Assembly (NCBI GenBank): GCA_029261055.1
Contig: JAJDCA010000018.1
Coordinates: 18,197 to 82,196 of the forward strand
Length of the DNA stretch: 64,000 bases
Source of the DNA: Candidatus Omnitrophota bacterium
Lineage (GTDB): Bacteria; Omnitrophota; Gorgyraeia; Zapsychrales; Zapsychraceae
Direction: 5' to 3'
A program made the position numbers and the translations under genes. Positions within the stretch are counted from its first letter, which is position 1. Each line of letters starts with the position of its first letter. Positions 9,858-41,396 of the stretch are shown piece by piece. The notes under the pieces were generated by a model. It was given only the letters and a program-made list of their open reading frames with translations. It was not told the origin of the DNA and made no database searches.

Positions 9858-12032
9858 CTATTTTATCAATCTATTAATATACCCTTGATCAACATTATAC
9901 CCAAAAGATTTAGCTTTTAGGGCATCTTGCAAGGCTTTTTCTCTCTGATTTTTTGCTTTATAAATCAAAGATCTTTTATAATATACCAAACCGTTTTGAG
10001 AATTCAACTTTATTATATTATTATAATCTTTTAATACATCTTCCATCCGATTCATTGCTAAATAAATATTGGCTCTTTGCCAATAGGCCCCTTCAAACCT
10101 GGGATTCATTTGAATGACTTTATCATAATCCGCTAACGCGAGCTGATATTTCCTTGTATTAAAATACGCAATGCCCCTATTGTAATACGCCTCCCAAAAA
10201 TGGGGGTTTAACTTTAAGGCATTTTTATAATCCTCTAAAGCGAGGGCATATTTTTTCATTTCAACATAGGCCGTACCTCTATTGCTGTAGGCCTTGATAT
10301 ACGTCGGGTTGATTTCCAGGGCTTTATTGTAATCGGCTAAAGCCGCATCATACTGTCCTTGTATTTTGTAAATGACACCTCTATTGCTGTAAGCGTCCTC
10401 TAAACGTGGATTGATTTCAATCGCTTTGTCATAGTCCGCCAAAGCCAAATTATTTTGTCCCATATGCCGATAGGCATTGCCTCTATTATTGTAGGCCTCA
10501 TCAAAATCAGGATTAAGCATTAACGCTTGATTAAAATTTTCTAAAGCGGTGTTGTATTGTTTTTTTGCACCGTAAGCCACACCCCGATTATTGTAAGCCT
10601 TAGCATGTTGCGAATCGATCGTAAGCGCTTTTGTGAAATACTCAATCGCTTGATTAAAATTACCATGCCTCAAAAAAGCCCCGCCCAAATTCATATGCGG
10701 CCTCAGCCTATGAGGTGATTTTTTCAATACGTCCTGCCAAAGAGTTACGCCATCCTGCCAAACGCTATTTCTCTGAAATGTTAAAAATGAACATGTCCCT
10801 ACAATCAAACTCAATACAATGACATATTTTTTGTAATCTTTCATCACATGCCGTAATCCCACCACCAACGCTATGGCAAAACCAACCATCGGTAAATAAA
10901 GCTTGTGTTCAAATATAACGTGACGTCGGGGAATAAAATTAGGTGCCAGCGTGAAAACAAACCAAAACATACCAAAAGCCATAAGTGTATTATATTTTTT
11001 AAACCTGATCGCAGCGACTAAAACACCTATCCAAGTGATCAAACTCAAACTCGTTGATAAGTCAAAAATATTTTGCGATAAAGAAAAATCATAATCGGGA
11101 TTCAAACCTATGGGGAAAAAAGAAATCCGCAAAAAAACCATCATCACGCGAAATTGCGTAAGAACATATTTTCCAAAAGTAATAACGTCTCCTACATGAG
11201 ATTCGGACATCTTCTGCGCGAACAACATACTCTTAACATTAAATGAAAATACTGCAGGAATGATAAGACAAAATAATAGTATCGTCCCCCAACCATACAC
11301 AGACCTCCGAGGTCTGTGTGCGGTTTCAGATGGCCGCAAAAACATAAACTCAATTAACAAAATCATCAACGGCAATGTAATCACAATCTCTTTCGTAAAC
11401 ATGCCAAGCACACCTGCAACAACGGCCCCGATAAAAAAATAATATTTGTACAGACGTGCCGATGCATCCTCCCTACCTTTCATGTACAAACACACGGCAA
11501 GAAGATAGAACATCGTCGCTAATGAAGCAAAACGTTGTGTAACATACGTCACCGCTTGCGTCTGCACTGGATGAGCGACGAAGATCAAAGCGACAAACAA
11601 TGCGACGGTCGAACCGTAAACAGACCTCGGGGGTCTGTTTGTAATTTTTTGTTGCAAACAGACCCCCGAGGTCTGTTTACGGCTTAAATTCCCCACAAGC
11701 ATCCCCACCAGCCACCACACCAACACCCCGCTCATTAAGTGAATCACCACGTTCGTCACATGATATCCGAAAACATCCAATTGATGAAAATGATAATTAA
11801 GGGCAAAAGAATAAAATGCCACAAAACGGGACGGTTGACTGAGCATACCCCATATCGAATCAAGGTGTGTAACATCACGAATGGCAGGATTACTGACGAT
11901 AAATATCAAGTCGTCAAAAACAAACTCATTTCGAAAAGTATTTGAATAAAGACCGATACCTAAAAAACATATCAGTAAAATAGGAAGAATTCTTGAGATA
12001 AAAATATTACTTATTTGGGGTGACTTCATCAA
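9858..12032 (-). CDS. Paralog 1 of 12: polytopic membrane PMT/TMTC-like (DUF1736-type, putative GT-C glycosyltransferase) protein with C-terminal TPR repeats
   Basis: N-terminal FVFDD...SQPSRFVAFYSFALNYHFH followed by more than 8 hydrophobic helices, then tandem 34-aa TPR units (AYNNRG..Y...G.Y..AL.DY.KAL.INP). Start uncertain; the ORF overlaps the next paralog. Confidence 0.6.
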   Translation of the reverse strand: MMKSPQISNIFISRILPILLICFLGIGLYSNTFRNEFVFDDLIFIVSNPAIRDVTHLDSIWGMLSQPSRFVAFYSFALNYHFHQLDVFGYHVTNVVIHLMSGVLVWWLVGMLVGNLSRKQTSGVCLQQKITNRPPRSVYGSTVALFVALIFVAHPVQTQAVTYVTQRFASLATMFYLLAVCLYMKGREDASARLYKYYFFIGAVVAGVLGMFTKEIVITLPLMILLIEFMFLRPSETAHRPRRSVYGWGTILLFCLIIPAVFSFNVKSMLFAQKMSESHVGDVITFGKYVLTQFRVMMVFLRISFFPIGLNPDYDFSLSQNIFDLSTSLSLITWIGVLVAAIRFKKYNTLMAFGMFWFVFTLAPNFIPRRHVIFEHKLYLPMVGFAIALVVGLRHVMKDYKKYVIVLSLIVGTCSFLTFQRNSVWQDGVTLWQDVLKKSPHRLRPHMNLGGAFLRHGNFNQAIEYFTKALTIDSQHAKAYNNRGVAYGAKKQYNTALENFNQALMLNPDFDEAYNNRGNAYRHMGQNNLALADYDKAIEINPRLEDAYSNRGVIYKIQGQYDAALADYNKALEINPTYIKAYSNRGTAYVEMKKYALALEDYKNALKLNPHFWEAYYNRGIAYFNTRKYQLALADYDKVIQMNPRFEGAYWQRANIYLAMNRMEDVLKDYNNIIKLNSQNGLVYYKRSLIYKAKNQREKALQDALKAKSFGYNVDQGYINRLIK
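11297..11319. repeat. 23-bp perfect palindrome, site 2 of paralog 1
   Basis: acacagacctc c gaggtctgtgt; encodes HRPRRSVYG. Confidence 0.8.
11614..11682. repeat. In-frame hairpin cassette, site 1 of paralog 1 (27-bp perfect stem, 15-nt loop)
   Basis: ccgtaaacagacctcgggggtctgttt / gtaattttttgttgc / aaacagacccccgaggtctgtttacgg; encodes NRPPRSVYGS loop. Confidence 0.85.
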
Positions 12033-14616
12033 AATATCGTTGATTAACTTGATAACCTAAAGATTGTGCCATAAGGGCATCCTCAAGAGCTTTTTCATTA
12101 TCACCTTTACTCTTATACGCAAGCGACCGTGCAAAATACCCCATACCTATCGTAGGGTTGATCTTTAAAAATTGCGTAAATTCTTCAATCGCCAGGTCAA
12201 ACTCCCCTCTTTCCCCATAAATGTTCCCCTTATTAAGATAGGTCACATAATTATTAGGATCAATATCCACCGCCTTATTAAATTCTTCTAAGGCCAAATC
12301 ATACTGTTTTTGCATTTTATAAATAACACCGCGGTTATTATAGGCCATCGCGTATTGTGGATTTAGTTCAACCGCTTTTGTGTAATCCTGCAAAGCCTTA
12401 TCCAGCATACCTTTTGATTTGTACACGACACCACGATTATTGTAAATTTCGCTGGCGTTTGGATCTATTTCCAAAGCCTTATCACAATTGGCCAAGGCCA
12501 AATCATACTGTTTCGTAGACTCAAACAAAACACACCGATTACTGTAAGACTCCATATATGTAGGATCAATCTCCAAAGCCTTGTCAAAATCATTCAAGGC
12601 GTCTTCATACTGACCTCTCATTTTATAAATAACACCACGATTATTGTAGGCCATAACATACTGAGAATCAATCTGGATGGCTTTATTGTAGTCCAAAAGA
12701 GCCAAATCATATTCTCCCTTTTTCTCATAAATAACGCCGCGGTTATAATACGCCTCTGTAAACCTAGGGTTAATACTCAAGGCCTTCTTGTAATCTTCAA
12801 GGATCAAATCATACTGGCCGGTTTCTTCATAAAGATTACTGCGGTTGCTGTACGCTTCTTCAAAATCAGGGTCGATCGCTAATGCTTTGTTAAAATCTTT
12901 AAGAGCCAACCCATGATTACCTTTTTTTTGATACACAATTCCCCGATTATTGTATGTTTTCACATAACTTCCATTAAACTCCAACGCCTTATTGTAATCA
13001 TCTAATGCCAAATCATCCTTATCCAAAGCTTCATAAACCACACCCCGGTCATTGTAAATTTCCGCAATGCTTGAATCCAAAGACATAGCTTTATTCAAAT
13101 CGGCAAGTGCAAGGTCATATTGTTTTTTATGACGATACGCATTCCCTCGATGATTGTAGGCCATGGTGTATTGACCATCCATTTCAATCACTTGGGTAAA
13201 ATGATCAATGGCATCGTCATATCGATCATATTCCAAATAAGCACTGCCTAAATTAATTTTCGGCCGTAACCGATTCGGCGATTTCTTCAAGGCATCCTCC
13301 CATAATGTAATGGGTGTCTGCCAAACCTTATTTCTTTGATAAGTCAAATAAGACAATATGATAAGAAAAATGCTCATACCTACGACAAATTTTTTAACGT
13401 CGCGAACATACTGAAAAAAACCAACACTTAAAACTAAAGAAAACCCAACCATAGGCAAATAAAGCTTGTGTTCAAAAATAACATGCCGCCGGGGAATAAA
13501 ATTTGGCGCTAAAGCCAGAAAAAACCAAAAAATCCCAAAAGCAATTAATAAACGCCGGGCCTTTATCTTCACGGCAAAGAGGAGACTGCCCATTACTAAA
13601 AGAAAACTTAACAACGTAGGCCATTCAAAAAAACTTTGGGACAATGGAAAATCATAATCGATATTCTGCCCCATCGGGAAAACGGCAAGCCGCAGAAAGG
13701 TTACCATCACACGAAACTGTGTCATCACATATTTCCCAAACGTAATCGTATCTCCTATGTGCGATTCCGACATTCGAGATGCAAACAAAGCATCTGAAAT
13801 ATTAAAAGAAAATACCGCGGGGATAATAAGCAAAAAAACCAAAACAACACTTATCAAAATTTTATTAACATGCTTCTTCTTGCTTTGGGCATCATAAAAA
13901 AACAAACCCTCAATTAAAAGAATCATCAAAGGCAAAGTAATGACAATTTCCTTAGAAAACATACCTAAAACAGCCGCCACAGCCGCTCCGAAAAAATAAA
14001 ATACAGACCTGCGACGCTTAGCCACCAATCGTCCGCTATCAGGCGTCAATATTTTAACTTTTTCTGAAGGCTGATGCCTGATGCCTGATATCTGACGCAT
14101 ACGCCCACTCACATACAAACAGACCGCTAATAAATAAAACAAGGTCGCTAAAGAAGCAAATCGTTGCGTAATATACGTCACCGCCTGCGTCTGCACCGGA
14201 TGGGCTACGAATATCAAGGCCGCAAACAACGGAATACTCGAACCGCCTCCGAACCTCGGGGGTTCGGATTTCCGAACCCCCGAGGTTCGTTTACGGTTAA
14301 GCGTCTCCATAAGCATCTTCACAAACCACCACACAAGCGTGGCCGTTATTAAATGAATCAGCAAATTTGTCAAATGATACGCAAATGCATCCAATTTATG
14401 AAAATGATAATTCAACGCAAATGAATAAAAAGCAACAAAACGGGACGGCTGACTGAGAAGATTCCAAATTTCTTTAACATTGCCTAAATTCTGAATAGGC
14501 TTATTGTTAACAATAAAAGGAATGTCATCAAATTGAAATGTGCTATGCAGCGTATTAGAGTAAAGAACGGCTCCTAAAAGCCATATGAGAAGAATAGGCC
14601 AATATTTTTTAATCAT
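12007..14616 (-). CDS. Paralog 2: PMT/TMTC-like membrane domain + TPR repeats
   Basis: Same architecture; TFQFDD, SQPSRFVAFYSFALNYHFH; about 14 TPR units. Confidence 0.6.
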   Translation of the reverse strand: MIKKYWPILLIWLLGAVLYSNTLHSTFQFDDIPFIVNNKPIQNLGNVKEIWNLLSQPSRFVAFYSFALNYHFHKLDAFAYHLTNLLIHLITATLVWWFVKMLMETLNRKRTSGVRKSEPPRFGGGSSIPLFAALIFVAHPVQTQAVTYITQRFASLATLFYLLAVCLYVSGRMRQISGIRHQPSEKVKILTPDSGRLVAKRRRSVFYFFGAAVAAVLGMFSKEIVITLPLMILLIEGLFFYDAQSKKKHVNKILISVVLVFLLIIPAVFSFNISDALFASRMSESHIGDTITFGKYVMTQFRVMVTFLRLAVFPMGQNIDYDFPLSQSFFEWPTLLSFLLVMGSLLFAVKIKARRLLIAFGIFWFFLALAPNFIPRRHVIFEHKLYLPMVGFSLVLSVGFFQYVRDVKKFVVGMSIFLIILSYLTYQRNKVWQTPITLWEDALKKSPNRLRPKINLGSAYLEYDRYDDAIDHFTQVIEMDGQYTMAYNHRGNAYRHKKQYDLALADLNKAMSLDSSIAEIYNDRGVVYEALDKDDLALDDYNKALEFNGSYVKTYNNRGIVYQKKGNHGLALKDFNKALAIDPDFEEAYSNRSNLYEETGQYDLILEDYKKALSINPRFTEAYYNRGVIYEKKGEYDLALLDYNKAIQIDSQYVMAYNNRGVIYKMRGQYEDALNDFDKALEIDPTYMESYSNRCVLFESTKQYDLALANCDKALEIDPNASEIYNNRGVVYKSKGMLDKALQDYTKAVELNPQYAMAYNNRGVIYKMQKQYDLALEEFNKAVDIDPNNYVTYLNKGNIYGERGEFDLAIEEFTQFLKINPTIGMGYFARSLAYKSKGDNEKALEDALMAQSLGYQVNQRYFDEVTPNK
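14038..14098. repeat. Heptamer (ctgaNNN) repeat / inverted-repeat cassette, site 0 of paralog 2
   Basis: ctgatgc ctgatgc ctgatat ctgacgc preceded by an inverted copy (cgctatcaggcgtca); encodes PSEKVKILTPDSGRL. Confidence 0.55.
14249..14289. repeat. In-frame hairpin cassette, site 1 of paralog 2
   Basis: ccgaacctcgggggttcgga tt tccgaacccccgaggttcg; encodes SEPPRFGG. Confidence 0.8.
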
Positions 14617-16981
14617 GCATTAACTCCCAAATCTTTAAACGTTGTTGTTCGGCAGGAACAAAACCTGGTTTAAGCTCCAAAACTTTTTCAAAACTTTTTA
14701 AAGCCTCTGGATATTTCTCTAAATTTATAAAAACAATGCCCTTATTGTAATACACTTCCAGGAAATCAGGATTAATTTCTAAAGCCTTCGCATAATCCGC
14801 CAGCGCAGCCTCATATTCTTTTTTCTCCACATAAGCCGTGCCCCGATTACTGTACGCCTGCGCATAGTTAGGATTAAGCGCTATGGCTTGTGTGTAATCC
14901 GCCAGGGCTAAATCATATTGCCTCTTCTTTCCGTAAACAATGCCGCGGTTATAATAAACGGTTTCAAATCCAGAATCAAGCTCTAAGGCTTTATTGTAAT
15001 CTGCTAAGGCTAAATCAAGTTGGCCCATTTTTTCATACACAAGCCCACGATTACTGTAAGAACTTTTATCATCCGGATCAAACGCCAAAGCTTTTTGATA
15101 ATCCGTTAGCGCCTTATCAAACTTTCCCTGTTTTCCGTACACAATTCCCCTGTTCCCATAGGCTTTAGCATAGTTCGGATTAATCGCCAACGTCTTTTCA
15201 TACTCCTGTAAAGCTAAATCAAATCGGCCTTTTTTTTCATAAATAATCCCGATGTTATTGTACACTTCTTCCAGGCCGGAACGCGATGCCAGGGCTTTTT
15301 GATAATCCTTAAGGGCCAAATCATATTGGCCTCGCTGCCTAAAAATATTCCCACGATTATTAAAAATTTTGATGGAATCCGGTGTAAGCTCAAGCGCATG
15401 ATTAAAATCTGCCAGCGCCAAATCATACTGACCCATTTGATCGTACACAACGCCTCGATTACTGTAGGCCTCAGCATAATTGGGCTTAAGCTTTAAAGCC
15501 TGATTATGGTCGACGAGCGCAAGATCATACCGCCGCTTTTTTTCATGAACAACACCCCGATTTGTGTAGGCCTGCGCATAATATGGATTAAGACTTAAGG
15601 CCCGATCATAATGTTTAAACGCCAAAGAATATTCATTACCTTGAAAATACGCACTCCCCAAATTATTATGCGCCCTGGCTTTATTCGGCGATTTATGGAC
15701 GACGTCTTCCCACAAATTTATTTCATTACGCCAAACTTGATTTCTCTGAAACGTCAGATAAGACAATGTCACAATAATAAGACTAATCGTAACCATGCAC
15801 TTTTTAGGATTTTTAAAAATCTGAAACATCCCCCCACACATGAACAAGGCCGCCCCCACCATCGCCAAATAAAGTTTATGTTCAAAAATAACATGCCGCC
15901 GAGGAATAAAGTTTGGTGCCAAGGCAATAAAAAACCAAAACAGCCCAAAGGCCGCTAACATATTACGTTTGCGCAACCAGAATATCAACCACCCCATGAT
16001 GCCCAAAAGAAATACAAAACTCAAAAACGTCGATCCTTCAAAAAAAGTTTGAGACAACGGAAAATCATAATCTGCATTCTGCCCGATAGGAAAAAGGGTA
16101 AGTTTGATAAATGTCGTCATCACCCTAAACTGCGTCATCACATATTTACCAAATGTAATGACATCGCCGTAATGCGATTCCGACATCTTTTGTCCAAACA
16201 CTACGCCCTTAATGTTAAAAGAAAATACGGCCGGGACAATAAGACAGAATAATAAAATCGGAATCACATACCGTCGTTTTGCTTTTAGAAAAAAATACTC
16301 AATCAAGAGAATCATCAATGGCAAAGTGATAACGATTTCTTTGGTAAACATCCCTAATACCGCAGCAATCGCAGCACCTAAAAAATGTACAGACGCGATT
16401 AATCCTGCCTTGCCGGCAGGCAGGCGCGTCTCTACGCCTCGCCCTTTAATGTAAAAACACAACGAAAGCAAATAAAACATCGTTGCCAAAGAAGCAAACC
16501 GCTGTGTAATGTACGTCACCGCCTGCGTCTGCAACGGGTGCGCCACAAAAATCAACGCAACAAAAAGAGCAACACTCGAACCGTACACAAACCTCGGGGG
16601 TTTGTATGGGTTTAAACCCATACAAACCCCCGAGGTTTGTGTACGGTTACCGCGCTTCACAAGCATCCCCACCAACCACCACACCAACACCGCCGTGGTC
16701 AAATGAATCACCAAATTCGTCACGTGATACCAAAAAGCATCGTACTGATGCACATGATAATTCAGCGCAAACGAATAAAACGCTACAAACCGTGACGGCT
16801 GACTCAGCATATTCCAAAGACCAGAAACATTACTGATGTCTCGAATCGCCGGATTCCCCAGAATAAACTGATGATCATCAAAATGAAAAGCCTCGTGCAA
16901 CGTATTCGCATACACCACCGCACCTAAAAGGCAGATCAAAACCACCGGAAACCAATTTTTAATTTTTTGGGATATTACCAT
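14609..16981 (-). CDS. Paralog 3: PMT/TMTC-like membrane domain + TPR repeats
   Basis: AFHFDD, SQPSRFVAFYSFALNYHVH; TPR array. Confidence 0.6.
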   Translation of the reverse strand: MVISQKIKNWFPVVLICLLGAVVYANTLHEAFHFDDHQFILGNPAIRDISNVSGLWNMLSQPSRFVAFYSFALNYHVHQYDAFWYHVTNLVIHLTTAVLVWWLVGMLVKRGNRTQTSGVCMGLNPYKPPRFVYGSSVALFVALIFVAHPLQTQAVTYITQRFASLATMFYLLSLCFYIKGRGVETRLPAGKAGLIASVHFLGAAIAAVLGMFTKEIVITLPLMILLIEYFFLKAKRRYVIPILLFCLIVPAVFSFNIKGVVFGQKMSESHYGDVITFGKYVMTQFRVMTTFIKLTLFPIGQNADYDFPLSQTFFEGSTFLSFVFLLGIMGWLIFWLRKRNMLAAFGLFWFFIALAPNFIPRRHVIFEHKLYLAMVGAALFMCGGMFQIFKNPKKCMVTISLIIVTLSYLTFQRNQVWRNEINLWEDVVHKSPNKARAHNNLGSAYFQGNEYSLAFKHYDRALSLNPYYAQAYTNRGVVHEKKRRYDLALVDHNQALKLKPNYAEAYSNRGVVYDQMGQYDLALADFNHALELTPDSIKIFNNRGNIFRQRGQYDLALKDYQKALASRSGLEEVYNNIGIIYEKKGRFDLALQEYEKTLAINPNYAKAYGNRGIVYGKQGKFDKALTDYQKALAFDPDDKSSYSNRGLVYEKMGQLDLALADYNKALELDSGFETVYYNRGIVYGKKRQYDLALADYTQAIALNPNYAQAYSNRGTAYVEKKEYEAALADYAKALEINPDFLEVYYNKGIVFINLEKYPEALKSFEKVLELKPGFVPAEQQRLKIWELMHD
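16391..16432. repeat. ATTAAT-centred palindrome interrupted by a nested palindrome, site 0 of paralog 3
   Basis: agacgcgattaatc [ctgccttgccggcaggcagg] cgcgtct; encodes ETRL-PAGKAG-LIASV. Confidence 0.7.
16581..16646. repeat. 66-bp perfect palindrome, site 1 of paralog 3
   Basis: ccgtacacaaacctcgggggtttgtatgggttt|aaacccatacaaacccccgaggtttgtgtacgg; encodes GLNPYKPPRFVYG. Confidence 0.85.
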
Positions 16982-19499: not shown

Positions 19500-19503
19500 T
19501 AAA

Positions 19504-23989: not shown

Positions 23990-24105
23990 GCAGCTAAAAC
24001 ATAAAATAGAAAAATTTCAGAAGCTGTTAGGATAGAACAAACTCGTGTTTAGCATCGGGGAATTTCATGCTACAGCCCTCTTCCTTCAATAGCATCTCTC
24101 CGCTC

Positions 24106-26655: not shown

Positions 26656-26690
26656 GCTTTATACCAATTCCAATAAATAATTACCAAAAA

Positions 26691-26766
26691 TTACTCTCGG
26701 TTTTCTCGAACGCTTTTACGAAAGAGACAACTCTGGTAGGATTGTCTCCTAGAATGCCGAGAGTAA
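26691..26766. promoter_or_regulatory. Compound hairpin in the 121-bp spacer between paralogs 8 and 7
   Basis: Outer arms ttactctcgg / ccgagagtaa flank an inner hairpin gagacaactctggtaggattgtctc. Confidence 0.35.
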
Positions 26767-26776
26767 ATCAGAAAAA

Positions 26777-28585: not shown

Positions 28586-28688
28586 TGTTTAAAGTTTAGA
28601 GATTCTGCTTATGATGTCAAGAAGAAATACGGCCAGAACTCCCCGAAAGCCCTAAAATAAACGGCAGTTGCGTGATAGGCAAATAGAA

Positions 28689-30611
28689 TTAATTTTGTGC
28701 TGCCACCGCTTTTTCGCGATTATCTTTAGCTTCTTGATTGGTAGGGTCGATTTGCAGGGCTTTATCAAAATCTTCAATAGCTAAATCAAGGCGGCCGCTG
28801 AGGCCGTGGGTCGCGCCGCGGTTGTTGTACGCCTGCAGGTAATTCGGCTTAATGGCTAAAGCTTGCGTGTAATCTTTAATGGCTAAATCGTATTTTTCCT
28901 TTAATCTTAATGTGTTTGCTCTATTGTAATAAGCTTCAGCGTAGTTGGGCTTAATCCTGATGGCACGGCTAAAATCAGCAATGGCCAGATTGTGGCGCGC
29001 CTGCAATCCATACACAAAACCGCGGTTATTAAATGCCTCATAATAATCACGATTAATTGTCACCGCCTTTGTAAAATCCGTAACGGCTTGATCGTAATCA
29101 TGCAGCTGATGATGCACATTGCCTCTATTATTGTAGGCCTCAGAATATTCGGGGTTAATGATGAGCGCCTGATCCAAATAATGCTTCGCCTGGGCATAGG
29201 CCCCGCGACTTAAATACGCGCAACCCAAATTAAAATGCGGTCGCGCTTTTTGGGGCGACTTCGCTACGACATCTGCCCACAAGGCCACTGGATCAGCCCA
29301 AATTTTATTACGTTGCACCGTCAAATAGGCAAAGACGGCAATGATCACGCAACATACTGCTACGTACTTTTTAATATTCTTCATCACCGCAAAAAGCCCT
29401 GCGCTTAGCGCAATAGAAAACCCGACTAACGGCAAATAAAGTTTGTGCTCAAAAATAATATTACGCCGCGGAATAAAATTGGGTGTCAGTGTCAGAAGAA
29501 ACCAAAATAGGCCAAAAGCCACCAGAGGATGCCGTTTGCGTATTTTCCAGGCAGCCACCAGGAGGCTGAAAATCAGGACGATGCTCAACAGAACCGACCA
29601 TTCAAAAATACTTTGCGACAAAGCAAAATCATAATCCAAATTTTGCCCGATGGGAAAAAGCGTTAGGCGAATAAACGTCGCCAACACACGAAACTGCGTT
29701 AGGACGTAAGGCCAAAACGTAATCACATCCCCAACGTGCGACTCCGACATTTTTGCTCCAAATAATAATCCGGAAATATTAAAAGAAAATACGGCGGGAA
29801 TGATTAGACAAAACAACAGTAGACAAACCGTAAACGAACCTCGTAGGTTCGGAAATCCGAACCTACGAGGTTCGTTTAGGGTTAACTCCACCCAAATAAT
29901 AGTCAACGGCAACGTAATCACAATTTCTTTAGTAAACATACCCAGAATAGCGGCAACGGCAGCTCCAAGAAAATAAGGAATACGTCTCCAAGTTTTAGTC
30001 ATCCGTCGTTTGTCATCAGTCGCCAGTATTTTGGCTTTTTCTGAAAGCTGAAGACTGACGTCTGATAGCTGATGGCTAACACGTCCCTTCATGTAAAGAC
30101 ACACCACCAACAAATAAAACATCGTCGCCAAAGATGCAAATCGCTGCGTAATGTACGCTACGGCTTGAGTCTGTACAGGATGACACAAAAAAATCAACGC
30201 GGCAAACAACGCGACGGTCGAACCGTAAACACACCCCGGGGGTCTGTTTACGGTACAAGACCTCAAACAGACCCCCGGGGTGTGTTTACGGTTACTAGCC
30301 CCAACAAGCATCCCCCCCAACCACCAGACCAACAGAGCATTAATCACATGAATCACGACATTCGTCATATGGTACCCAAACACATCCAGCCCATGAAAAT
30401 AATAATTCAACGCAAACGAATAAAAGGCCACAAACCTCGACGGCTGCTCCAAATATGTCGCAATCGATTTGACATTCCCTAAACTCCGAATACTTTCATT
30501 AGTGACAATAAAAACTTGATCATCAAATTGGAAAGGCGCCTGCAATGTATTGGCATACATCCATCCCCCTATGATCACAATAAGGGCGATGGCTAAAAAT
30601 TTCTTAATCAT
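28689..30611 (-). CDS. Paralog 9: PMT/TMTC-like membrane domain + TPR repeats
   Basis: PFQFDD, EQPSRFVAFYSFALNYYFH. Start refined to MIKKF (ATG 30611), preceded by GGAGG. Confidence 0.6.
   Translation of the reverse strand: MIKKFLAIALIVIIGGWMYANTLQAPFQFDDQVFIVTNESIRSLGNVKSIATYLEQPSRFVAFYSFALNYYFHGLDVFGYHMTNVVIHVINALLVWWLGGMLVGASNRKHTPGVCLRSCTVNRPPGCVYGSTVALFAALIFLCHPVQTQAVAYITQRFASLATMFYLLVVCLYMKGRVSHQLSDVSLQLSEKAKILATDDKRRMTKTWRRIPYFLGAAVAAILGMFTKEIVITLPLTIIWVELTLNEPRRFGFPNLRGSFTVCLLLFCLIIPAVFSFNISGLLFGAKMSESHVGDVITFWPYVLTQFRVLATFIRLTLFPIGQNLDYDFALSQSIFEWSVLLSIVLIFSLLVAAWKIRKRHPLVAFGLFWFLLTLTPNFIPRRNIIFEHKLYLPLVGFSIALSAGLFAVMKNIKKYVAVCCVIIAVFAYLTVQRNKIWADPVALWADVVAKSPQKARPHFNLGCAYLSRGAYAQAKHYLDQALIINPEYSEAYNNRGNVHHQLHDYDQAVTDFTKAVTINRDYYEAFNNRGFVYGLQARHNLAIADFSRAIRIKPNYAEAYYNRANTLRLKEKYDLAIKDYTQALAIKPNYLQAYNNRGATHGLSGRLDLAIEDFDKALQIDPTNQEAKDNREKAVAAQN
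29826..29883. repeat. In-frame hairpin cassette, site 2 of paralog 9 (same type as paralog 8 site 2; 1 mismatch)
   Basis: aaccgtaaacgaacctcgtaggttcgga aa tccgaacctacgaggttcgtttagggtt. Confidence 0.8.
30005..30083. repeat. Heptamer ctgaNNN repeat / inverted-repeat cassette, site 0 of paralog 9
   Basis: ...tcatcagtcgccag tattttggcttttt ctgaaag ctgaaga ctgacgt ctgatag ctgatgg...; encodes SEKAKILATDDKRR. Confidence 0.55.
30223..30291. repeat. In-frame hairpin cassette, site 1 of paralog 9 (27-bp stem, loop acggtacaagacctc)
   Basis: ccgtaaacacaccccgggggtctgttt ... aaacagacccccggggtgtgtttacgg. Confidence 0.85.
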
Positions 30612-32631
30612 TCGGTAAAACCTCCATGGCCTTACGCACCCAAGCACGTTGTTGCTGAGCTTTAGCGTAACCGGGATCAATCGCTAAAGCACGGTTGTAA
30701 TCTTCCAAGGCCAAGGCGTATTGTTTTTGGTGTGCATAAATATTACCCCGGTTAAAATACGCTTCTTTAAAATTCAGATTAATCGCAATCGCCTTATTGT
30801 AATCCCACAAAGCTAAATCCTGCAACTGTTGCGCCGCAAAAATACCACCACGATTGCTGTAAGCTTGCGCGTTACGCGGATCTATTTTAATCGCAGCACC
30901 ATAATCTTTAAGGGCCTTTTCATATTGCCCTAAAGAAAAATACACATTCGCCCGGTTAACGTATCGACTGGCATTCGCCGGATTCAAAACAATCGCCGCA
31001 TCAAAATCGACCAAAGCCAAATCATATTTCTTTTGTATCTGATAAATGACCCCCCGGTTATTATGTGCAATAGCCGATTCCGAATCAATCAAAAGCGCCT
31101 GCGTAAAATCAGCCAAAGCTAAATCATAACGTCGTTCCATTTGATAAACAGATCCCCGATTATTGTAGGCCGACACATTATTGGGATTAAGCATCAAAGC
31201 TTGATTGAGATGCGTCAAAGCCAAACCCGTATCCCTCCTCTGCAAATAATACACCTTCCCTAAATTATTATGCGGCCGCGATTTGTGCGGCGACTTTTGT
31301 ACCACATCTTCCCACAACGTAATTTCATTGTTCCAAACTTTATTTCGCTGAAACGTCAAACACGAAAAAATAATAATCACACCAGACACAACGGAAACAA
31401 ACATTCTGGAATTTCTAATTAAAGAATACATCCCTGCTGTCAACGCCAAACACAGCCCAACGCTTGGCAAATACATGCGATGTTCAAATATGACATCCGC
31501 AATCGGAATAAAACTGGACTCCACCGACAGCGTAAGGAAAAACCAAATAATGCCTAGTGTCACAAGCTTATTACGTGTACGCATCCAAATCGCAAATCCA
31601 AATAACACAATACATGTCAGCATACTTAACAAAGTCGGCCATTCAAAAATACTGTACGCCAAAGGAAAGTCATAATCAAGATTCTGTCCAACTGGAAACA
31701 GGAATAATTTTAAATACGTTACCAGCACTTTAAACTGCGTCAAAAAGTACACCGATCGTGTCATTGTCGCCACGCCACTGGCTTCAGACATACTTTCCTG
31801 AGCCAACACTCCCGACAAATTAAACGAATACAAACAAGGAATAATTACAGCAAATGACAATATCAAAACAATGTAATACCATGGGACATCAATAATTCTT
31901 TTCGATCCTTCCCTCCTAAAAAAATAAAACTCCAACACAAGAATCATAAACGGCAGCGTAAACACAATTTCCTTACTGAACATACCCAGCACAGCCGCGA
32001 TCGCAGCTCCCACAAAACGTACAGACGCGATTAATCGCGTCTCTGCACATCGTCCTTTCATGTAAAGACACACCGAAAGCAAATAAAACATCGTTCCCAA
32101 CAGCGTAAACCGCTGCGCAATGTACGTCACCGCCTGCGTCTGCACGGGGTGACACAAAAAAATAAACGTTGCACACAGAGCGACGGTCGAACCGTAAACA
32201 CACCTCGGGGGTGTGTTTTTGATTTTTCGCCGTAAACACACCCCCGAGGTGTGTTTACGGTTAATGCTCCGAACACCCATCCCCACCAACCACCACACAA
32301 GCAAAGCATTAATCACATGAATCCCCACATTCACCACATGATACCCAAACACATCCAACTTATGAAAATGGTAATTCACCGCAAAACTCAAATACGGAAT
32401 CAAGCGTCGCGCCGACACCCCGAGTGTATGATCCATCAAATGCTTCGTCGTATTGGTCCATGCAATTGCAATATTAAAAACATCCCTGATCTGCGGATTT
32501 TCCACAATGACACGCGTATCATCAAAATGGAAAGAACTATGAAAAGTGTTAGCGTAAATAGCTCCGCCTAAAATACAAATAATGAATACAAAAAATAATT
32601 TGTTAATTCTCATATTTAAATATTTAATCAT
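30604..32631 (-). CDS. Paralog 10: PMT/TMTC-like membrane domain + TPR repeats (divergent N-terminal motif SFHFDDTRVIVENPQIRD)
   Basis: Same architecture; shares long near-identical stretches with paralog 11 (SVESSFIPIADVIFEHRMYLPSVGLCLA). Start uncertain: 32631, 32613 or 32685. Confidence 0.55.
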   Translation of the reverse strand: MIKYLNMRINKLFFVFIICILGGAIYANTFHSSFHFDDTRVIVENPQIRDVFNIAIAWTNTTKHLMDHTLGVSARRLIPYLSFAVNYHFHKLDVFGYHVVNVGIHVINALLVWWLVGMGVRSINRKHTSGVCLRRKIKNTPPRCVYGSTVALCATFIFLCHPVQTQAVTYIAQRFTLLGTMFYLLSVCLYMKGRCAETRLIASVRFVGAAIAAVLGMFSKEIVFTLPFMILVLEFYFFRREGSKRIIDVPWYYIVLILSFAVIIPCLYSFNLSGVLAQESMSEASGVATMTRSVYFLTQFKVLVTYLKLFLFPVGQNLDYDFPLAYSIFEWPTLLSMLTCIVLFGFAIWMRTRNKLVTLGIIWFFLTLSVESSFIPIADVIFEHRMYLPSVGLCLALTAGMYSLIRNSRMFVSVVSGVIIIFSCLTFQRNKVWNNEITLWEDVVQKSPHKSRPHNNLGKVYYLQRRDTGLALTHLNQALMLNPNNVSAYNNRGSVYQMERRYDLALADFTQALLIDSESAIAHNNRGVIYQIQKKYDLALVDFDAAIVLNPANASRYVNRANVYFSLGQYEKALKDYGAAIKIDPRNAQAYSNRGGIFAAQQLQDLALWDYNKAIAINLNFKEAYFNRGNIYAHQKQYALALEDYNRALAIDPGYAKAQQQRAWVRKAMEVLPND
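32023..32042. repeat. 20-bp perfect ATTAAT palindrome, site 0 of paralog 10
   Basis: agacgcgattaatcgcgtct. Confidence 0.75.
32192..32260. repeat. In-frame hairpin cassette, site 1 of paralog 10 (27-bp perfect stem)
   Basis: ccgtaaacacacctcgggggtgtgttt / 15-nt loop / aaacacacccccgaggtgtgtttacgg. Confidence 0.85.
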
Positions 32632-34516
32632 ATCCACCCATACAATCTGCGTACATACTTTCAAGCATTTTACCCTTACGATCAATCTCTTTGACTTTAA
32701 CAGTGTTACCCAACGCTTGACAAGTATTCACAAGATGAAGATAAGATTTCTTGAAATCAGGATTTATTTTTAAAGCCTTTTTGTAATATTTCATTGCCAA
32801 TGCATGTTGATGTTTGGCGCCATAAATTAACCCAATATTATCGTAAGTCGTCGTCAAATTGGGATTTAACTTAACCGCCATTTCGTAATCAGCCAAGGCT
32901 TTGTCATACTGCTGCGTAAGATGATATGCCGTCCCTCGATTATTGTACGTTACGGCAGATGTTGGGTTTAAAACCAATGCCCGATCATAATCTCTAATGG
33001 CCAAACCATACCTCCCCTTTTTCTCAAAAAAATGCCCTCTATTGGTGTATGCTTTAACATGGTAAGGATCAATATGTAAGGCCTTATTGAAATGCGCTAG
33101 TGCTAAATCATATTTACTTTCTTTCAAATACGCGGCCCCTAAAATACCGTGACCTCTTGCTTTATTTGGCGATTTTTTCACCACATCTTCCCACAACGTC
33201 ATTTCATTGTTCCAAACTTTGTTTCGCTGAAACGTTAAATAAGAAAAAACAATCACAATCACACACGCAACCGTTACAAGCGCTCTGGAATTTTTTATGA
33301 AAACTAACAGCCCAGCTGTAAACGCCAAACACAGCCCAACGCTTGGCAAATACATGCGATGTTCAAATATGACATCCGCGATCGGAATAAAACTGGACTC
33401 CACCGACAACGTCAGAAAAAACCAAATAATGCCCAACGAAACAAGGCGATGACGTGAAAACAATTTTACGGCTGCACCTAACAATACAACGCACATCATC
33501 ATACTCAAAAAAGTCGACCATTCAAAAATACTTTGCGCCAAAGGAAAATCATAATCAAGATTTTGCCCGACTGGAAACAGGAATAACTTTAAATAAGCCA
33601 ACACCACTTTAAACTGCGTCAAAAAATAAACCGACCGCGTCATCGCCGCCACGCCACTGGATTCAGACACACTTTCCTGAGCCAACACTCCCGACAAATT
33701 AAACGAATACAAACAAGGAACAATTACAGCAAATGACAATATCAAAACAATGTAATACCACGGAACATCAATAATTCTTTTCGATCCTTCCTTTCTAAAA
33801 AAATAAAACTCCAACACAAGAATCATAAACGGCAGCGTAAACACAATTTCCTTACTGAACATACCCAGCACAGCCGCGACAGCAGCCCCCACAAAACGTA
33901 CAGACGCGATTAATCGCGTCTCTGCACATCGTCCTTTCATGTAAAGACACACCGAAAGCAAATAAAACATCGCCCCCAACAACGTAAACCGCTGCGCAAT
34001 GTACGTCACCGCCTGCGTCTGCAGAGGATGACACAGAAAAATCAAGGCTGCACACAAAGCGACTGTCGAACCGTAAACGAACCTCGGGGGTTCGGATTTC
34101 GGGAATTCAGATTTCCGAACCCCCGAGGTTCGTTTACGGTTAAAAATCTTCACCACCATCCCCACCAACCACCACACAAGCAAAGCATTCACCACATGAA
34201 TCCCTACATTCACCACATGATACCCAAACACATCCAACTTATGAAAATGGTAATTCACCGCAAACGTCAAAAACGGAATAAGCCGTCGTGCAGACAACCC
34301 CTGCGTATGCTCAAGCAAATGCTTGGTGGTATCCATCCACACAACCTTAATATTTTGAATATTTCTAATCTGCGGATTCTCCACAATGACACGCGTGTCG
34401 TCAAAATGAAAAGTGCTGTGGAAGGTGTTGGCGTAAATAATAATGCCGAGGCAAACAAGAAAAATAGCAGGAAAAAACTTTTTAATCCCCTGACATAATG
34501 TTAGATGGACTTTCAT
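32624..34516 (-). CDS. Paralog 11: PMT/TMTC-like membrane domain + TPR repeats
   Basis: TFHFDDTRVIVENPQIRN; close duplicate of paralog 10 in the membrane domain. Start uncertain: 34516, 34555 or 34576. Confidence 0.55.
   Translation of the reverse strand: MKVHLTLCQGIKKFFPAIFLVCLGIIIYANTFHSTFHFDDTRVIVENPQIRNIQNIKVVWMDTTKHLLEHTQGLSARRLIPFLTFAVNYHFHKLDVFGYHVVNVGIHVVNALLVWWLVGMVVKIFNRKRTSGVRKSEFPKSEPPRFVYGSTVALCAALIFLCHPLQTQAVTYIAQRFTLLGAMFYLLSVCLYMKGRCAETRLIASVRFVGAAVAAVLGMFSKEIVFTLPFMILVLEFYFFRKEGSKRIIDVPWYYIVLILSFAVIVPCLYSFNLSGVLAQESVSESSGVAAMTRSVYFLTQFKVVLAYLKLFLFPVGQNLDYDFPLAQSIFEWSTFLSMMMCVVLLGAAVKLFSRHRLVSLGIIWFFLTLSVESSFIPIADVIFEHRMYLPSVGLCLAFTAGLLVFIKNSRALVTVACVIVIVFSYLTFQRNKVWNNEMTLWEDVVKKSPNKARGHGILGAAYLKESKYDLALAHFNKALHIDPYHVKAYTNRGHFFEKKGRYGLAIRDYDRALVLNPTSAVTYNNRGTAYHLTQQYDKALADYEMAVKLNPNLTTTYDNIGLIYGAKHQHALAMKYYKKALKINPDFKKSYLHLVNTCQALGNTVKVKEIDRKGKMLESMYADCMGGYD
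33902..33921. repeat. 20-bp perfect ATTAAT palindrome, site 0 of paralog 11
   Basis: agacgcgattaatcgcgtct. Confidence 0.75.
34069..34141. repeat. In-frame hairpin cassette with internal partial duplication, site 1 of paralog 11
   Basis: aaccgtaaacgaacctcgggggttcgga tttcgggaattcagattt tccgaacccccgaggttcgtttacggtt; encodes KSEFPKSEPP (duplicated KSEP). Confidence 0.8.
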
Positions 34517-36935
34517 TATTGATTTGATATCCCAAAGATTGCGCCTTAAAAGCATTTTGCTGGGCCTGGGAAGCATTCCCCATTGCTTTGTAAATTAAGG
34601 CACGCTGGTAATAGGCCCCAGCATATTTCGGATTGATCGTTAAAACTTTACCATAATCAGCCAAGGCAAGACGGTATTTTTTCAACTGAGTGTACACAAC
34701 GGCACGGTTGTAATACGCCTCCCAAAAATCCGGATTAATTTTAATCGCTTTATGAAAATCTTTCAAGGCCGCAGCATGCTGCTTCAAGGCCAACTGAACC
34801 AATCCTCTATTATTGTACGCTCTCAAATACGATGAATTAATTTTAATAGCCTGGCTGTAATTTTCCAAAGCCGCGGCGTAATCTTTTTTTAATGTGTACA
34901 CAAGCCCACGATTACTCAAAAATTCTTCCTTTTTATTAGGAGACTGCCTTAATGCCTGGGTGTAATCAACCAAAGCTAAATCATATTGCCCTTGCGCTTT
35001 GTACATATTGCCCCGGTTACTGTAAAACTGGGGCATGTCCGGATTAATCGTAATCGCCTGCTTAAAATCCGCCGTCGCCAAATCATATTGACGTTTAACT
35101 TTGCGAATAATCCCGCGATTACTGTACGCCGACGCTAACAAAGGATCATTTTTAATCGCTTTATTGTAATCACTCAACGCCTGATCATACCGCCTTTGAT
35201 CCTTGTAAAAATTCCCGCGATTATTGTACGACTCAGCATTGTTGGGATCCAATTGAATACTTTGATTAAAATCTGCCAAAGCCAAATCATGCAGCCCCTT
35301 CTTTTGATACACAACGCCACGATTGTCATACCCTTTAACATTGCCAGCATCCATTTCAATGGACTTCGTCAAATATTCAAGAGCCAAATCATATTCACCT
35401 CTGGCAAAATAGGAATATCCTAAATTAAGATACGGCCGCATCTTACCGGGAGATTTCCGAACAACATCACTCCACAAAGAAACTGCATTTTGCCACACCC
35501 TGTTTCTTTGAATCGTTAAAGAAGAATAGACACTCAAAATAATCAACATGCTAACCACACATTTCTTTTTATTATTAAAACTTAAATACAATAAACACGG
35601 TAATATCATACAAAACCCGATGGATGCTAAATACAATTTATGCTCAAAAATAATATGCCGCCTTGGCACCAAATTGGCTGCCATCGTCAGGAAAAACCAA
35701 AATATCCCAAAAGAAATCACCGCATGCCGATGCCTTAATCTCATTGCTAACATTACCAACCCCGTCAAAAAAACAAAACTCAACACAACCGGCCATTCAA
35801 AGATTCCTTGCGACAATGGAAAATCATAATCAAGATTTTGCCCGATGGGAAAAACCAATAAACGAATAAAAACCACAAAAACACGTGCTTGCGTTAAAAA
35901 ATATTTCCCAAACGTAATCACATCCCCCGCATGCGACGCCGACATCTTTGGCCCGAACAATATCCCGAAAACATTAAACGAAAAAACGGCGGGGATGATC
36001 AAACAAAACAATAATAAAAATACCCAACCGTAAACCGTAAACACACCCCGGGGGTCTGTTTGAGGTCTTGTACCGTAAACAGACCCCCGGGGTGTGTTTA
36101 CGGTTCCAGTCGATCGCAAAAACATAAACTCAACAAGTAAAATCATCAAAGGCAACGTAATCACAATTTCTTTGGTGAACATCCCAAGGACAGCAGCCAC
36201 CGCAGCTCCGAAGAAATAAAAAATGGGCCGCCAATTCTTAGACGTCAGTCGTCTGCTATCAGCTGTCAGTATTTTGTTTTTTTCTGAAGACTGATGACTG
36301 ATGGCTGATGACTGATAGCTAATACGTCCCTTTATGTAAAAACACAACGAAAGTAAATAAAACAATGTCGCCAAAGACGCAAACCGCTGACTAATGTACG
36401 TCACCGCCTGAGTCTGAACAGGATGGGCCACAAAAAGCAATGCGGCAAACAAACCGTAAACGAACCCAGAAAGTTTGCGTTCGCAAACTCTCACGGTTCG
36501 TTTACGGTTAAAAGTCTTCACCAACATCCCCACCAACCACCACACCAACAAAGAATTAACCACATGAATCACAAGATTCGTCACATGATACCCAAAAACA
36601 TTTAACCCATGAAAATGATAATTTAACGCAAAGGTGAGAAAAGCGACATAACGTGAAGGCTGGCCGAGAATACTGCCAAACGTAGTAATATTTTTGAAAT
36701 CTTTAATGTAAGAATTACCAGCAACAAATTTTACATCATCAAATTGAAAAGGACTGTGGAGGGTATTTGCATAAAGGGCAACACCAAGAAGGCCTATGAC
36801 AAAAAAATAGTGACAGAAACCGTTTTTTAAAAAACCTTCACTTATTTTCTTAAAAAAGGGTCTGTCACTATTTTTTTGGCTGAACAATTTTTTGGGCCAA
36901 TCTCTTAATTCAAATAATTTTTTAACTCTGTCCAA
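34482..36935 (-). CDS. Paralog 12: PMT/TMTC-like membrane domain + TPR repeats
   Basis: PFQFDD, GQPSRYVAFLTFALNYHFH; about 12 TPR units; long N-terminal extension. Confidence 0.6.
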   Translation of the reverse strand: MDRVKKLFELRDWPKKLFSQKNSDRPFFKKISEGFLKNGFCHYFFVIGLLGVALYANTLHSPFQFDDVKFVAGNSYIKDFKNITTFGSILGQPSRYVAFLTFALNYHFHGLNVFGYHVTNLVIHVVNSLLVWWLVGMLVKTFNRKRTVRVCERKLSGFVYGLFAALLFVAHPVQTQAVTYISQRFASLATLFYLLSLCFYIKGRISYQSSAISHQSSEKNKILTADSRRLTSKNWRPIFYFFGAAVAAVLGMFTKEIVITLPLMILLVEFMFLRSTGTVNTPRGSVYGTRPQTDPRGVFTVYGWVFLLLFCLIIPAVFSFNVFGILFGPKMSASHAGDVITFGKYFLTQARVFVVFIRLLVFPIGQNLDYDFPLSQGIFEWPVVLSFVFLTGLVMLAMRLRHRHAVISFGIFWFFLTMAANLVPRRHIIFEHKLYLASIGFCMILPCLLYLSFNNKKKCVVSMLIILSVYSSLTIQRNRVWQNAVSLWSDVVRKSPGKMRPYLNLGYSYFARGEYDLALEYLTKSIEMDAGNVKGYDNRGVVYQKKGLHDLALADFNQSIQLDPNNAESYNNRGNFYKDQRRYDQALSDYNKAIKNDPLLASAYSNRGIIRKVKRQYDLATADFKQAITINPDMPQFYSNRGNMYKAQGQYDLALVDYTQALRQSPNKKEEFLSNRGLVYTLKKDYAAALENYSQAIKINSSYLRAYNNRGLVQLALKQHAAALKDFHKAIKINPDFWEAYYNRAVVYTQLKKYRLALADYGKVLTINPKYAGAYYQRALIYKAMGNASQAQQNAFKAQSLGYQINNESPSNIMSGD
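36035..36103. repeat. In-frame hairpin cassette, site 2 of paralog 12 (the paralog 9 site-1 element in inverted orientation)
   Basis: ccgtaaacacaccccgggggtctgttt gaggtcttgtaccgt aaacagacccccggggtgtgtttacgg; the loop is the reverse complement of the loop at 30250..30264. Confidence 0.85.
36241..36325. repeat. Heptamer ctgaNNN repeat with inverted copy, site 0 of paralog 12
   Basis: gtcagtcgtctgctatcagctgtcag tattttgttttttt ctgaaga ctgatga ctgatgg ctgatga ctgatag; encodes SEKNKILTADSRRL. Confidence 0.6.
36452..36509. repeat. Nested-palindrome cassette, site 1 of paralog 12
   Basis: aaccgtaaacgaacc cagaaagtttgcgttcgcaaactctca cggttcgtttacggtt. Confidence 0.75.
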
Positions 36936-37402: not shown

Positions 37403-37463
37403 ATCATTTCTCCTTTTTGTTTTCATTAATCTGAGGCGTATTTTTGGTGCCGACAGGAAAGGT

Positions 37464-40346: not shown

Positions 40347-40361
40347 TTTTTCTCTTATCTC

Positions 40362-41378: not shown

Positions 41379-41396
41379 AATTTAAAAACCATTAAC

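Follow-up and report, generated by a model that had tools for sequence, protein, structure and literature searches.

A tandem array of twelve TMTC-like GT-C/TPR genes with in-frame palindromes in a Candidatus Omnitrophota bacterium

Twelve tandem paralogs with one architecture

We analysed a stretch of 64,000 nucleotides (hereafter the window), part of a 98,963-bp NCBI contig that was assembled from metagenomic data and assigned to a Candidatus Omnitrophota bacterium. Positions 9858–36935 are filled by 12 consecutive minus-strand open reading frames (ORFs) of 602–869 aa, named here PAR1 to PAR12, which encode polytopic membrane proteins ending in tetratricopeptide repeats (TPRs). The ORF calls, in which all 12 frames are intact, bear out the positions and lengths assigned to them in an initial annotation of this DNA. 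The tandem array is real, with each of its 12 paralogs intact. Starting from the 3' end of the array, the paralogs are PAR1 (9858–12032; 724 aa, 8 TPR units), PAR2 (12007–14616; 869 aa, 12 units), PAR3 (14609–16981; 790 aa, 10 units), PAR4 (16959–19547; 862 aa as longest ORF, 12 units), PAR5 (19504–22026; 840 aa, 12 units), PAR6 (P0001; 22004–23989; 661 aa, 6 units), PAR7 (24106–26655; 849 aa, 11 units), PAR8 (P0002; 26777–28585; 602 aa, 4 units), PAR9 (P0003; 28689–30680; 663 aa, 5 units), PAR10 (P0022; 30604–32685; 693 aa, 6 units), PAR11 (P0012; 32624–34576; 650 aa, 4 units), and PAR12 (34482–36935; 817 aa, 9 units), the first gene of the array. Lengths refer to the longest ORFs; the public annotation starts PAR9, PAR10, and PAR11 18–23 codons downstream, at 30611 (giving 640 aa), 32631, and 34516, respectively.

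Three junctions are spacers of 116, 121, and 103 bp, as first reported (103–121 bp), and the remaining ones overlap. Measured on the longest ORFs, the overlaps are of 8–44 bp at five junctions and of 62–95 bp at three. The annotated starts of PAR9–PAR11 bring these three to 8, 8, and 35 bp; the initial range of 8–44 bp is therefore correct with annotated starts and too narrow for the longest ORFs. The start/stop motif ATGATTAA is common to several junctions, a pattern typical of translational coupling. Scanning the three spacers for promoters and terminators gave counts equal to those of shuffled sequence. The PAR7–PAR8 spacer (26663–26794) consists over its whole 121 nt of an AT-rich imperfect inverted repeat with 44-nt arms that are 75% complementary, and a similar repeat lies at 36800–36878, near the probable start of PAR12; both are possible regulatory or terminator structures.

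All 12 proteins align end to end, with 45–53% identity to the first copy, and share the single architecture already recognized in the initial annotation: a short N-terminus, a polytopic domain of ~400–475 residues reaching to a conserved QRN, then the TPRs. A profile of the N-terminal domain (N-domain) matches every copy, and the array is far from a chance assembly of genes. The long identical stretches described earlier are real, although in DNA they are short: excluding physical overlaps, the longest exact matches are 85 bp (PAR10/PAR11), 75 bp (PAR7/PAR8), and 73 bp (PAR5/PAR6). In a search of 5.8 billion proteins, the top matches from the array were only its shorter paralogs, PAR6, PAR8, PAR9, PAR10, and PAR11; PAR5, itself the query, was absent, and PAR7 is probably present only in another library (P0121). 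The larger genes of this contig may be missing from, or differently annotated in, the public record.

The C-terminal repeats are readily identified. TPR families of Pfam match all 12 proteins strongly (TPR_1 down to E = 6e-106), and the TPR domain of OGT is a PDB profile match at E = 7e-95; both PDB profiles and Foldseek place this part closest to OGT and SPINDLY. A hidden Markov model (HMM) of the unit detects 4–12 repeats per copy, or 5–13 when the degenerate first helix pair of the structure model is counted (4 units and 5 helix pairs in PAR8), and the 7–15 units proposed before are thus too many. The helix-A asparagine, which forms the ladder of OGT, is kept in 83 of the 99 units. In OGT, substrate peptides are bound by this ladder. 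No other segment of the paralogs has diverged as far as the TPR region, which has 33–53% identity versus 41–94% for segments of the membrane domain. Between PAR10 and PAR11, DNA identity falls from >90% to ~50% at the membrane/TPR junction, and this sharp drop indicates that domain-level mosaics exist.

The membrane domain contains an invariant F-x-F-D-D motif (12/12), whose Asp-Asp pair lies in the first extracytoplasmic loop, in agreement with the conserved acidic loop predicted for these domains. The second motif reported for this loop, SQPSRFV, occurs in ten of the copies; its place is taken in PAR10 and PAR11 by ARRLIP, together with a 10-aa insertion. In PAR1 numbering, the invariant residues are D40, D41, R69, H154-P155, K214-E215, E375-H376, and Y379, and their equivalents are invariant or nearly so in alignments of 78 and 34 sequences. 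The Asp pair itself (D36 and D37 in PAR8) is invariant in the 12 paralogs and in both alignments. Structure models of PAR8 were of high confidence, for the N-domain (pLDDT 90.5, pTM 0.91) and for the full-length protein (pLDDT 91.3, pTM 0.90), in which the helix of transmembrane segment 11 (TM11) continues into the TPR solenoid. The N-domain model displays a GT-C-type polytopic membrane fold, and its three top-ranking structural matches are protein O-mannosyltransferases (PMTs) and oligosaccharyltransferases; the membrane domain almost certainly adopts the GT-C fold of glycosyltransferases. Foldseek comparison of the full-length model with the PDB retrieved TPR proteins only, and no solved chain matches both domains together. 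Helices of the model and loop charges predict 11 TM helices, an N-terminus on the cytoplasmic side, and TPRs in the periplasm. At the position of the lumenal MIR domain that PMTs carry between TM7 and TM8, the model has a loop of ~63 residues that comprises a short helix, a beta bridge, and an amphipathic helix, and no MIR domain was matched in the paralogs by Pfam.

None of the 12 N-domains matches PF08409 (DUF1736), PF13231 (PMT_2), or PF02366 (PMT), the families to which these proteins had been provisionally related. PF08409 was also not matched by the 12 full-length proteins at E ≤ 0.01 (among the best 25 of 33 matched families), by 34 N-domains at E ≤ 1, or by five N-domains at E ≤ 10. 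A single N-domain among the 34 examined at E ≤ 1 matched PMT_2 (1.1e-5) and PMT (0.006); it is taken to be that of the homolog P0041, which itself carries PF13231. Used alone as query, the N-domain finds 39,077 cluster representatives with a cutoff of E ≤ 1e-3 and 18,092 with one of E ≤ 1e-10, mostly from Omnitrophota and also from metagenome-assembled genomes of Bacteroidota, Nitrospirota, Desulfobacterota, and Latescibacterota. Nearly all of these homologs bear only the annotation tetratricopeptide repeat protein; a few JGI records have protein O-mannosyl-transferase. As the proteins fall outside the DUF1736, PMT, and PMT_2 families, we classify them as a TMTC-like bacterial GT-C/TPR family. 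The initial proposal of a TMTC-like GT-C protein thus stands on the invariant Asp-Asp loop, the TMTC-like motifs, and the TPRs, and does not stand on Pfam.

Palindromes within the reading frames

Each paralog contains, in frame and within the loop between TM2 and TM3 (site 1), a near-perfect palindrome of 58–73 nt with arms of 28–35 nt, a feature absent from the initial annotation. The termini are conserved (AACCGT...ACGGTT) and the encoded peptides recur, for example TSGVRKSEPPRF and HTPGVCMR..TPPGCVYG. Site-1 copies of 73 nt are found in PAR1 (11612–11684), PAR4 (19109–19181), PAR7 (26256–26328; RNA fold −67.6 kcal/mol), PAR8 (28177–28249), PAR9 (30221–30293), PAR10 (32190–32262; an ACACACC variant), and PAR11 (34069–34141; a CGAACC variant with an internal duplication). 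That of PAR3 is 70 nt long (16579–16648), with 35-nt arms that are 100% complementary and an RNA fold of −65 kcal/mol. Those of PAR2 (14241–14298), PAR5 (21645–21702), PAR6 (23581–23638), and PAR12 (36452–36509), the most decayed copy, are of 58 nt. Four genes hold a second copy in the TM6–TM7 loop (site 2), in a reading frame other than that of site 1: a single 35-nt unit in PAR1 (11291–11325), the in-frame copies of PAR8 (27857–27914) and PAR9 (29826–29883), and that of PAR12 (36033–36105), which is the PAR9 site-1 element in opposite orientation. This makes 16 in-frame copies in 12 genes, to which is added one related intergenic copy in the window, outside the array, in the spacer between two VWA/Bat genes (41385–41445). 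Consistent with this distribution, a half-element pattern has 41 matches in the window for 0.22 expected, 40 of them within the array and the 41st in the intergenic hairpin.

Predicted fold energies of the palindromes lie between −39 and −68 kcal/mol (z-scores from −8 to −17). Alignment of 17 copies reveals compensatory double changes at 14 of the 26 stem pairs, and G-U pairs occupy only 4 of 442 cells. Such compensation with almost no G-U is what a symmetric DNA palindrome shows, as opposed to an RNA structure maintained on one strand, and Rfam has no match anywhere in the window. Homologs lacking the element have a TM2–TM3 loop of ~8–15 residues, indicating that the palindrome is an insertion. 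The loops that it encodes, such as residues 113–137 of PAR8, are the sole low-confidence parts of both models. These loops are presumably on the cytoplasmic side, and their distance from the active face would explain why they are tolerated.

Two other sequences recur in the membrane domain. A second palindrome family of 22 nt (GAGACGCGATTAATCGCGTCTC, with the pattern (C/G)AGACGCGATTAATCGCGTCTC and encoding ETRLIAS) occupies the TM4–TM5 loop of four genes (18941–18962, 28009–28030, 32022–32043, and 33901–33922). An insertion of ~85–105 nt in the TM4–TM5 loop, encoding HQxSEKxKILTxD.., is shared by the non-adjacent PAR2 (13990–14076), PAR9 (29970–30074), and PAR12 (36210–36296); its copies are 76% identical and start with short repeats of the CATCAG type. 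It was considered as a hairpin and rejected (z-scores of −0.8 to −2.6, not significant), and it is treated as a shared indel. We also discarded hairpins of the attC type or of diversity-generating retroelements: the palindrome termini do not fit attC core sites, and integrase and reverse transcriptase are absent.

Several observations show that the palindromes turn over faster than their host genes. The 73-nt site-1 copy of PAR9 is identical at 73 of 73 positions to the reverse complement of the PAR12 site-2 copy, despite the mere ~50% protein identity of the two hosts. Conversely, PAR10 and PAR11 are closest relatives whose DNA is 92–100% identical on both sides of the site and ~60% identical at the element, where they carry different variants. 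Among 118 family genes from 83 other loci, no real hairpin with arms of at least 16 nt was found, versus 15 in the 12 genes of the window. L084, a related locus from ENA, possesses perfect hairpins at site 1 and at site 2, their terminal stems differing by compensatory changes. Scanning metagenomes also uncovered the single 35-nt unit at ordinary intergenic positions near unrelated genes, beginning at a stop codon in L086 and upstream of a gene in L085. Viral contigs contained no copy, and the hairpin borders showed no consistent target-site duplication.

The DNA flanking the palindromes is homogenized. Over the 66 pairs of paralogs, synonymous-codon identity reaches 0.71 across the 44 codons lying upstream of site 1, 0.84 within the element itself, and 0.60–0.61 across the 50 codons downstream, compared with 0.47–0.54 elsewhere; it is flat, at 0.47–0.52, in 19 hairpin-free loci. 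Similarly, DNA identity between PAR7 and PAR8 and between PAR5 and PAR6 peaks at 93–100% over ~200 bp centred on the hairpin. These data show palindromes that lie in frame, are mobile or copied, and have homogenized flanks.

The elements recall Rickettsia palindromic elements (RPEs), short palindromic repeats that lie in frame in coding genes and add a peptide without destroying the protein, and repetitive extragenic palindromic (REP) sequences. Like RPEs, they are many-copy and in frame within genes; like REPs, their single unit is also extragenic, and classic GTAG-ended REP-like hairpins occur in spacers of the window. They differ from RPEs by their length (58–73 nt versus ~100–150 nt), by far greater perfection, and by their concentration, within the window, at homologous loops of one paralog family instead of a scatter over unrelated genes. 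Homogenized flanks, the lack of any RAYT or transposase seen in the window, and the lack of a consistent target duplication further distinguish them from both classes. We consider an RPE- or REP-like origin likely.

Intergenic REP-like hairpins lie in five spacers, at 39288–39359, 43108–43169, 46177–46222, 52166–52228, and 52709–52748. Several have ends of the GTAGGGGC...GCCCGTAC type (the GTAG head being typical of REPs); two sequence families recur across spacers, and DNA-fold z-scores are −3.4 to −9.8. A GC-rich, GTAG-ended palindrome at 56234–56296 lies in frame in an unrelated minus-strand ORF of 1072 aa (53745–56963), where it encodes ...VGAGPRARPVKGQPQGAAPTY..., and the host ORF has no Pfam match. 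In-frame insertion of palindromes is thus not limited to GT-C/TPR genes.

Origin and possible function of the array

The locus is conserved in relatives with fewer copies. In L084, the order is GH15, PG_binding_1 lipoprotein (57% identical to that of the window), a single GT-C/TPR gene, and the ortholog of a 174-aa ORF with a weak GspC-like match; the single gene is the positional counterpart of PAR12. In five loci, all of them with one or two copies, the family gene is preceded by a lipoprotein with a peptidoglycan-binding domain, and the conserved order is GH15, this lipoprotein, GT-C/TPR, and GspC-like ORF. Among 83 related loci, 61 have one copy, 13 two, 5 three, 2 four, and 2 five; with small arrays in 22 of the 83, clustering in tandem is usual for this family. 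Twelve is therefore the largest array seen, within compared loci that spanned at most 21 kb each, a flank limit that bounds the detectable array size. Four loci (L017, L034, L022, and L059) hold four to five copies within 12–21 kb, some of them ending at contig ends, with divergent gene orientation in L017 and L059; larger arrays than those detected may exist elsewhere. According to the neighbour-joining tree, PAR1–PAR9 form a pure clade and PAR12 branches just outside, beside P0004 and P0009, while PAR10 and PAR11 belong to another subfamily (SVESS...EHR) common to many other genomes. Together with the L084 comparison, the tree identifies the array as a lineage-specific expansion at a conserved locus, the second subfamily included. 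This sequence comparison shows growth by lineage-specific tandem duplication at a locus where relatives have one or two copies.

Eukaryotic TMTC1–4 (PF08409) offer the closest architectural parallel, with an N-terminal GT-C domain, 11 predicted TM helices, a cytoplasmic N-terminus, and C-terminal TPRs on the far side of the membrane. Seven motifs, M1 to M7, including DD, SHKSYRP, RxD, KE(T/Q)xxT, DW, and ERxxY, have been defined for TMTCs (Eisenhaber et al., PMC7801869). Compared by eye, DD is exactly conserved in the first loop, K209-E-x-x-x-T214 (KEIVIT) is close to KE(T/Q)xxT (M4, in EL3), SQPSRFV is similar to SHKSYRP (M2), and E368-H-[KR]-x-Y372 before TM10 is similar to ERxxY (M7); the equivalents of RxD and DW are uncertain. 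The paralogs differ from TMTCs by the absence of a PF08409 match and have 4–12 TPRs. Since the host is a bacterium, these enzymes would face the periplasm and draw on a bacterial polyprenyl donor, unlike TMTCs. The closest solved folds are those of the fungal and animal PMT family (GT39; Pmt1/2/4 and POMT1/2), from which the paralogs are separated by a sequence identity of 9–13%, by the lack of PMT and PMT_2 matches in the 12 copies, and by C-terminal TPRs instead of a MIR domain. TfpW, the pilin D-arabinofuranosyl transferase of Pseudomonas aeruginosa, glycosylates a protein and has the same GT-C and TPR architecture, the only ground on which it was compared. However, tfpW is a single gene directly downstream of pilA, whereas the genes described here form an array with no pilin motif in the window and with a PG-binding lipoprotein, a GspC-like ORF, and a secretin as neighbours.

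Taken together, we favour, at a probability of roughly 0.6, a TMTC-like GT-C/TPR array for protein glycosylation with REP-like hairpins that seed gene conversion. Each gene would encode an inner-membrane GT-C-fold glycosyltransferase, with its catalytic Asp-Asp in the first periplasmic loop and its last helix leading into a periplasmic OGT-like solenoid of 4–12 repeats. Working as eukaryotic TMTC1–4 and TfpW do, each enzyme would draw its sugar at the periplasmic face from a polyprenyl-phosphate carrier and pass it to envelope or secreted proteins picked by its own TPR domain. A protein is the probable acceptor. The multi-substrate reading, one of those put forward initially, is favoured by the data, given that divergence is greatest in the TPR regions, and we infer from the 12 diverged TPR domains that there are multiple acceptors; 12 copies could then provide 12 acceptor specificities. 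In the history of the array, breaks induced by the hairpins would start conversion between paralogs, homogenizing ~100–150 bp on each flank and carrying the element from copy to copy. We judge the chances of such hairpin-seeded conversion to be evenly balanced. Extending it further, the palindromes might be the engine of the array: cruciform or hairpin breaks in the codons of a cytoplasmic loop would repeatedly start conversion, shuffle membrane segments relative to TPR domains, and copy the hairpin into new duplicates, in a self-propagating diversification of the periplasmic protein-glycosylation repertoire. This extension is speculative and seems to us improbable.

A number of points weigh against this interpretation. 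At E ≤ 10, Pfam assigns five isolated N-domains to no family, NCBIfam finds TPR families only and no GT-C family for the domain, and an N-domain profile has no match among PDB chains at E ≤ 10 (an earlier PDB profile search had been dominated by TPR matches). The topology and the cytoplasmic position of the hairpin loops rest on model helices, loop charges, and analogy. No candidate acceptor protein was identified, and the candidate donor synthase described below is 9 kb from the array, with eight housekeeping genes between. The tree is a simple neighbour-joining tree with no support values. Concerning the hairpins, no transposase or RAYT is present in the window, and flank homogenization could partly reflect co-insertion of flanking DNA with the element or selection on a target sequence.

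Alternative explanations concern the acceptor, the hairpins, and the array itself. GT-C transferases such as ArnT, Emb/Aft, and PimE modify non-protein acceptors, and the paralogs might similarly act on lipid A or the lipopolysaccharide core, peptidoglycan, lipoglycan, or exopolysaccharide, with the TPRs as a scaffold for docking to envelope machinery. This is rather unlikely, as PMTs and oligosaccharyltransferases occupy ranks 1–3 of the structural matches, the TPRs are of the OGT type with a conserved Asn ladder, a peptide-binding feature, and the only characterized enzymes combining GT-C with C-terminal TPRs (TMTC and TfpW) act on proteins; moreover, many protein acceptors account more readily than a single glycan for 12 diverged TPR domains. 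The hairpins could instead be RNA elements selected in a long polycistronic transcript, as RNase III sites, mRNA stabilizers, or translation-pause sites for membrane insertion, their peptides being incidental. Their stems, perfect duplexes of 28–35 bp, are long enough for RNase III, and fold energies reach −68 kcal/mol; the position after the first membrane helices is conserved in 12/12 genes, the four wobble mismatches are all G-U on the sense strand with no A-C, and one site-2 copy precedes a T-run and scores as terminator-like. We nevertheless regard such a role as distinctly unlikely: the 4 G-U among 442 cells reflect the symmetry of double-stranded DNA, the element occurs in both orientations and two reading frames, single units lie in ordinary intergenic DNA elsewhere, 118 homologous genes do without a hairpin, Rfam has no match, and cleavage within every ORF would destroy the message.

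The initial annotation also suggested a phase-variable or diversifying locus, in which expression or gene content would switch at high frequency. Twelve similar tandem genes, their mosaic structure (PAR10 and PAR11 combine a near-identical membrane domain with unrelated TPRs), and recombinogenic palindromes in every copy would suit a programmed system of this kind, but other features make it very improbable. The window holds no long simple-sequence tracts (they reach only 7–10 nt, none at gene starts) and no recombinase, the 64 kb containing neither invertase, integrase, reverse transcriptase, nor transposase; the 12 ORFs are all unbroken and show translational coupling at their junctions, promoter-like sites are no commoner than in shuffled sequence, and the divergence is old (~50% protein identity, exact DNA matches of at most 85 bp). 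The same divergence bears on an artefact of assembly or amplification. Tandem paralogs in a metagenome-assembled contig are a classic place for mis-assembly, yet the copies differ by ~40–50% in DNA over most of their length, beyond what an assembler would collapse or shuffle, so that assembly collapse cannot explain the array, and all reading frames are intact. As to the hairpins, L084 was assembled independently from a different sample and shares the flanks and both hairpin sites, with compensatory differences, and independent JGI contigs carry the single unit. An artefact is hardly credible for either feature.

On the reading that we prefer, protein glycosylation with REP-like hairpins, the membrane domain represents a very large bacterial family unseen by current domain libraries (39,077 cluster representatives), whose GT-C fold and TMTC-type motifs point to a widespread and unstudied periplasmic glycosylation of proteins in Omnitrophota and several other phyla. 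This family would be a clear bacterial counterpart to the eukaryotic TMTC enzymes. The architecture is already known from TMTC and TfpW and the hairpins resemble RPEs and REPs; what differs is the size, perfection, and concentration of the hairpins, and the conversion signal. By itself, the enzyme array is an expansion of moderate interest; it is the translated palindromes that surprise. Near-perfect palindromes translated as loops at the same site in 12 paralogs, with homogenized flanks, provide a natural case of repeats shaping a gene family, and would extend the coding palindromes of Rickettsia to a distant phylum and tie them to gene conversion. On the practical side, strong hairpins can break polymerase chain reaction, cloning, and sequencing of these genes. 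A literature search found no publication on this GT-C/TPR family or on these elements in Omnitrophota.

Neighbouring genes

Directly upstream of the array, a minus-strand gene encodes the coiled-coil PG_binding_1 lipoprotein (36905–37492), the neighbour conserved in five related loci, and a Bat/MoxR operon follows. Downstream, the minus-strand 174-aa ORF (9332–9856), predicted to be membrane-anchored, starts one base after the PAR1 stop; its GspC-like match (E = 9e-5) is far below the family cutoff. It adjoins a secretin of the GspD/PilQ type (7668–9317, minus strand), beyond which lie FxsA and housekeeping genes. The secretin had led to the proposal of an adjacent secretin/pilus-like module. 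The secretin is indeed next to the array, but no prepilin signal motif was found in any frame of the window, no pilus genes were seen, and secretin linkage is observed in only 3 of 86 related loci, so that a pilus-like module is an overstatement.

The GT2 gene recognized initially at 1–586 (minus strand) was confirmed. Its N-terminal 195 aa are encoded in the window, the 3' part lying beyond the window start, and they match PF00535 at E = 8e-23, with the polyprenyl-phospho-sugar synthase PpgS as best match (E = 9e-31). By sequence, it is a reasonable candidate for the donor-forming enzyme, not tightly linked to the array.

The Bat/MoxR-type operon (39372–46161) is complete, with a MoxR AAA_3 ATPase, DUF58, DUF4381, BatA, a VWA protein, and a BatC-like TPR protein. 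MoxR and DUF58 are separated by an inserted YhcG/DUF1016 nuclease gene (44064–45146), and a second gene of this type, DUF1016-SNase, is found at 46225–47229. Three large ORFs of 1085, 1072, and 1117 aa (48020–51277, 53745–56963, and 60561–63914) match no Pfam family at E ≤ 1e-3; they might encode envelope or surface proteins and, as such, possible glycosylation targets.

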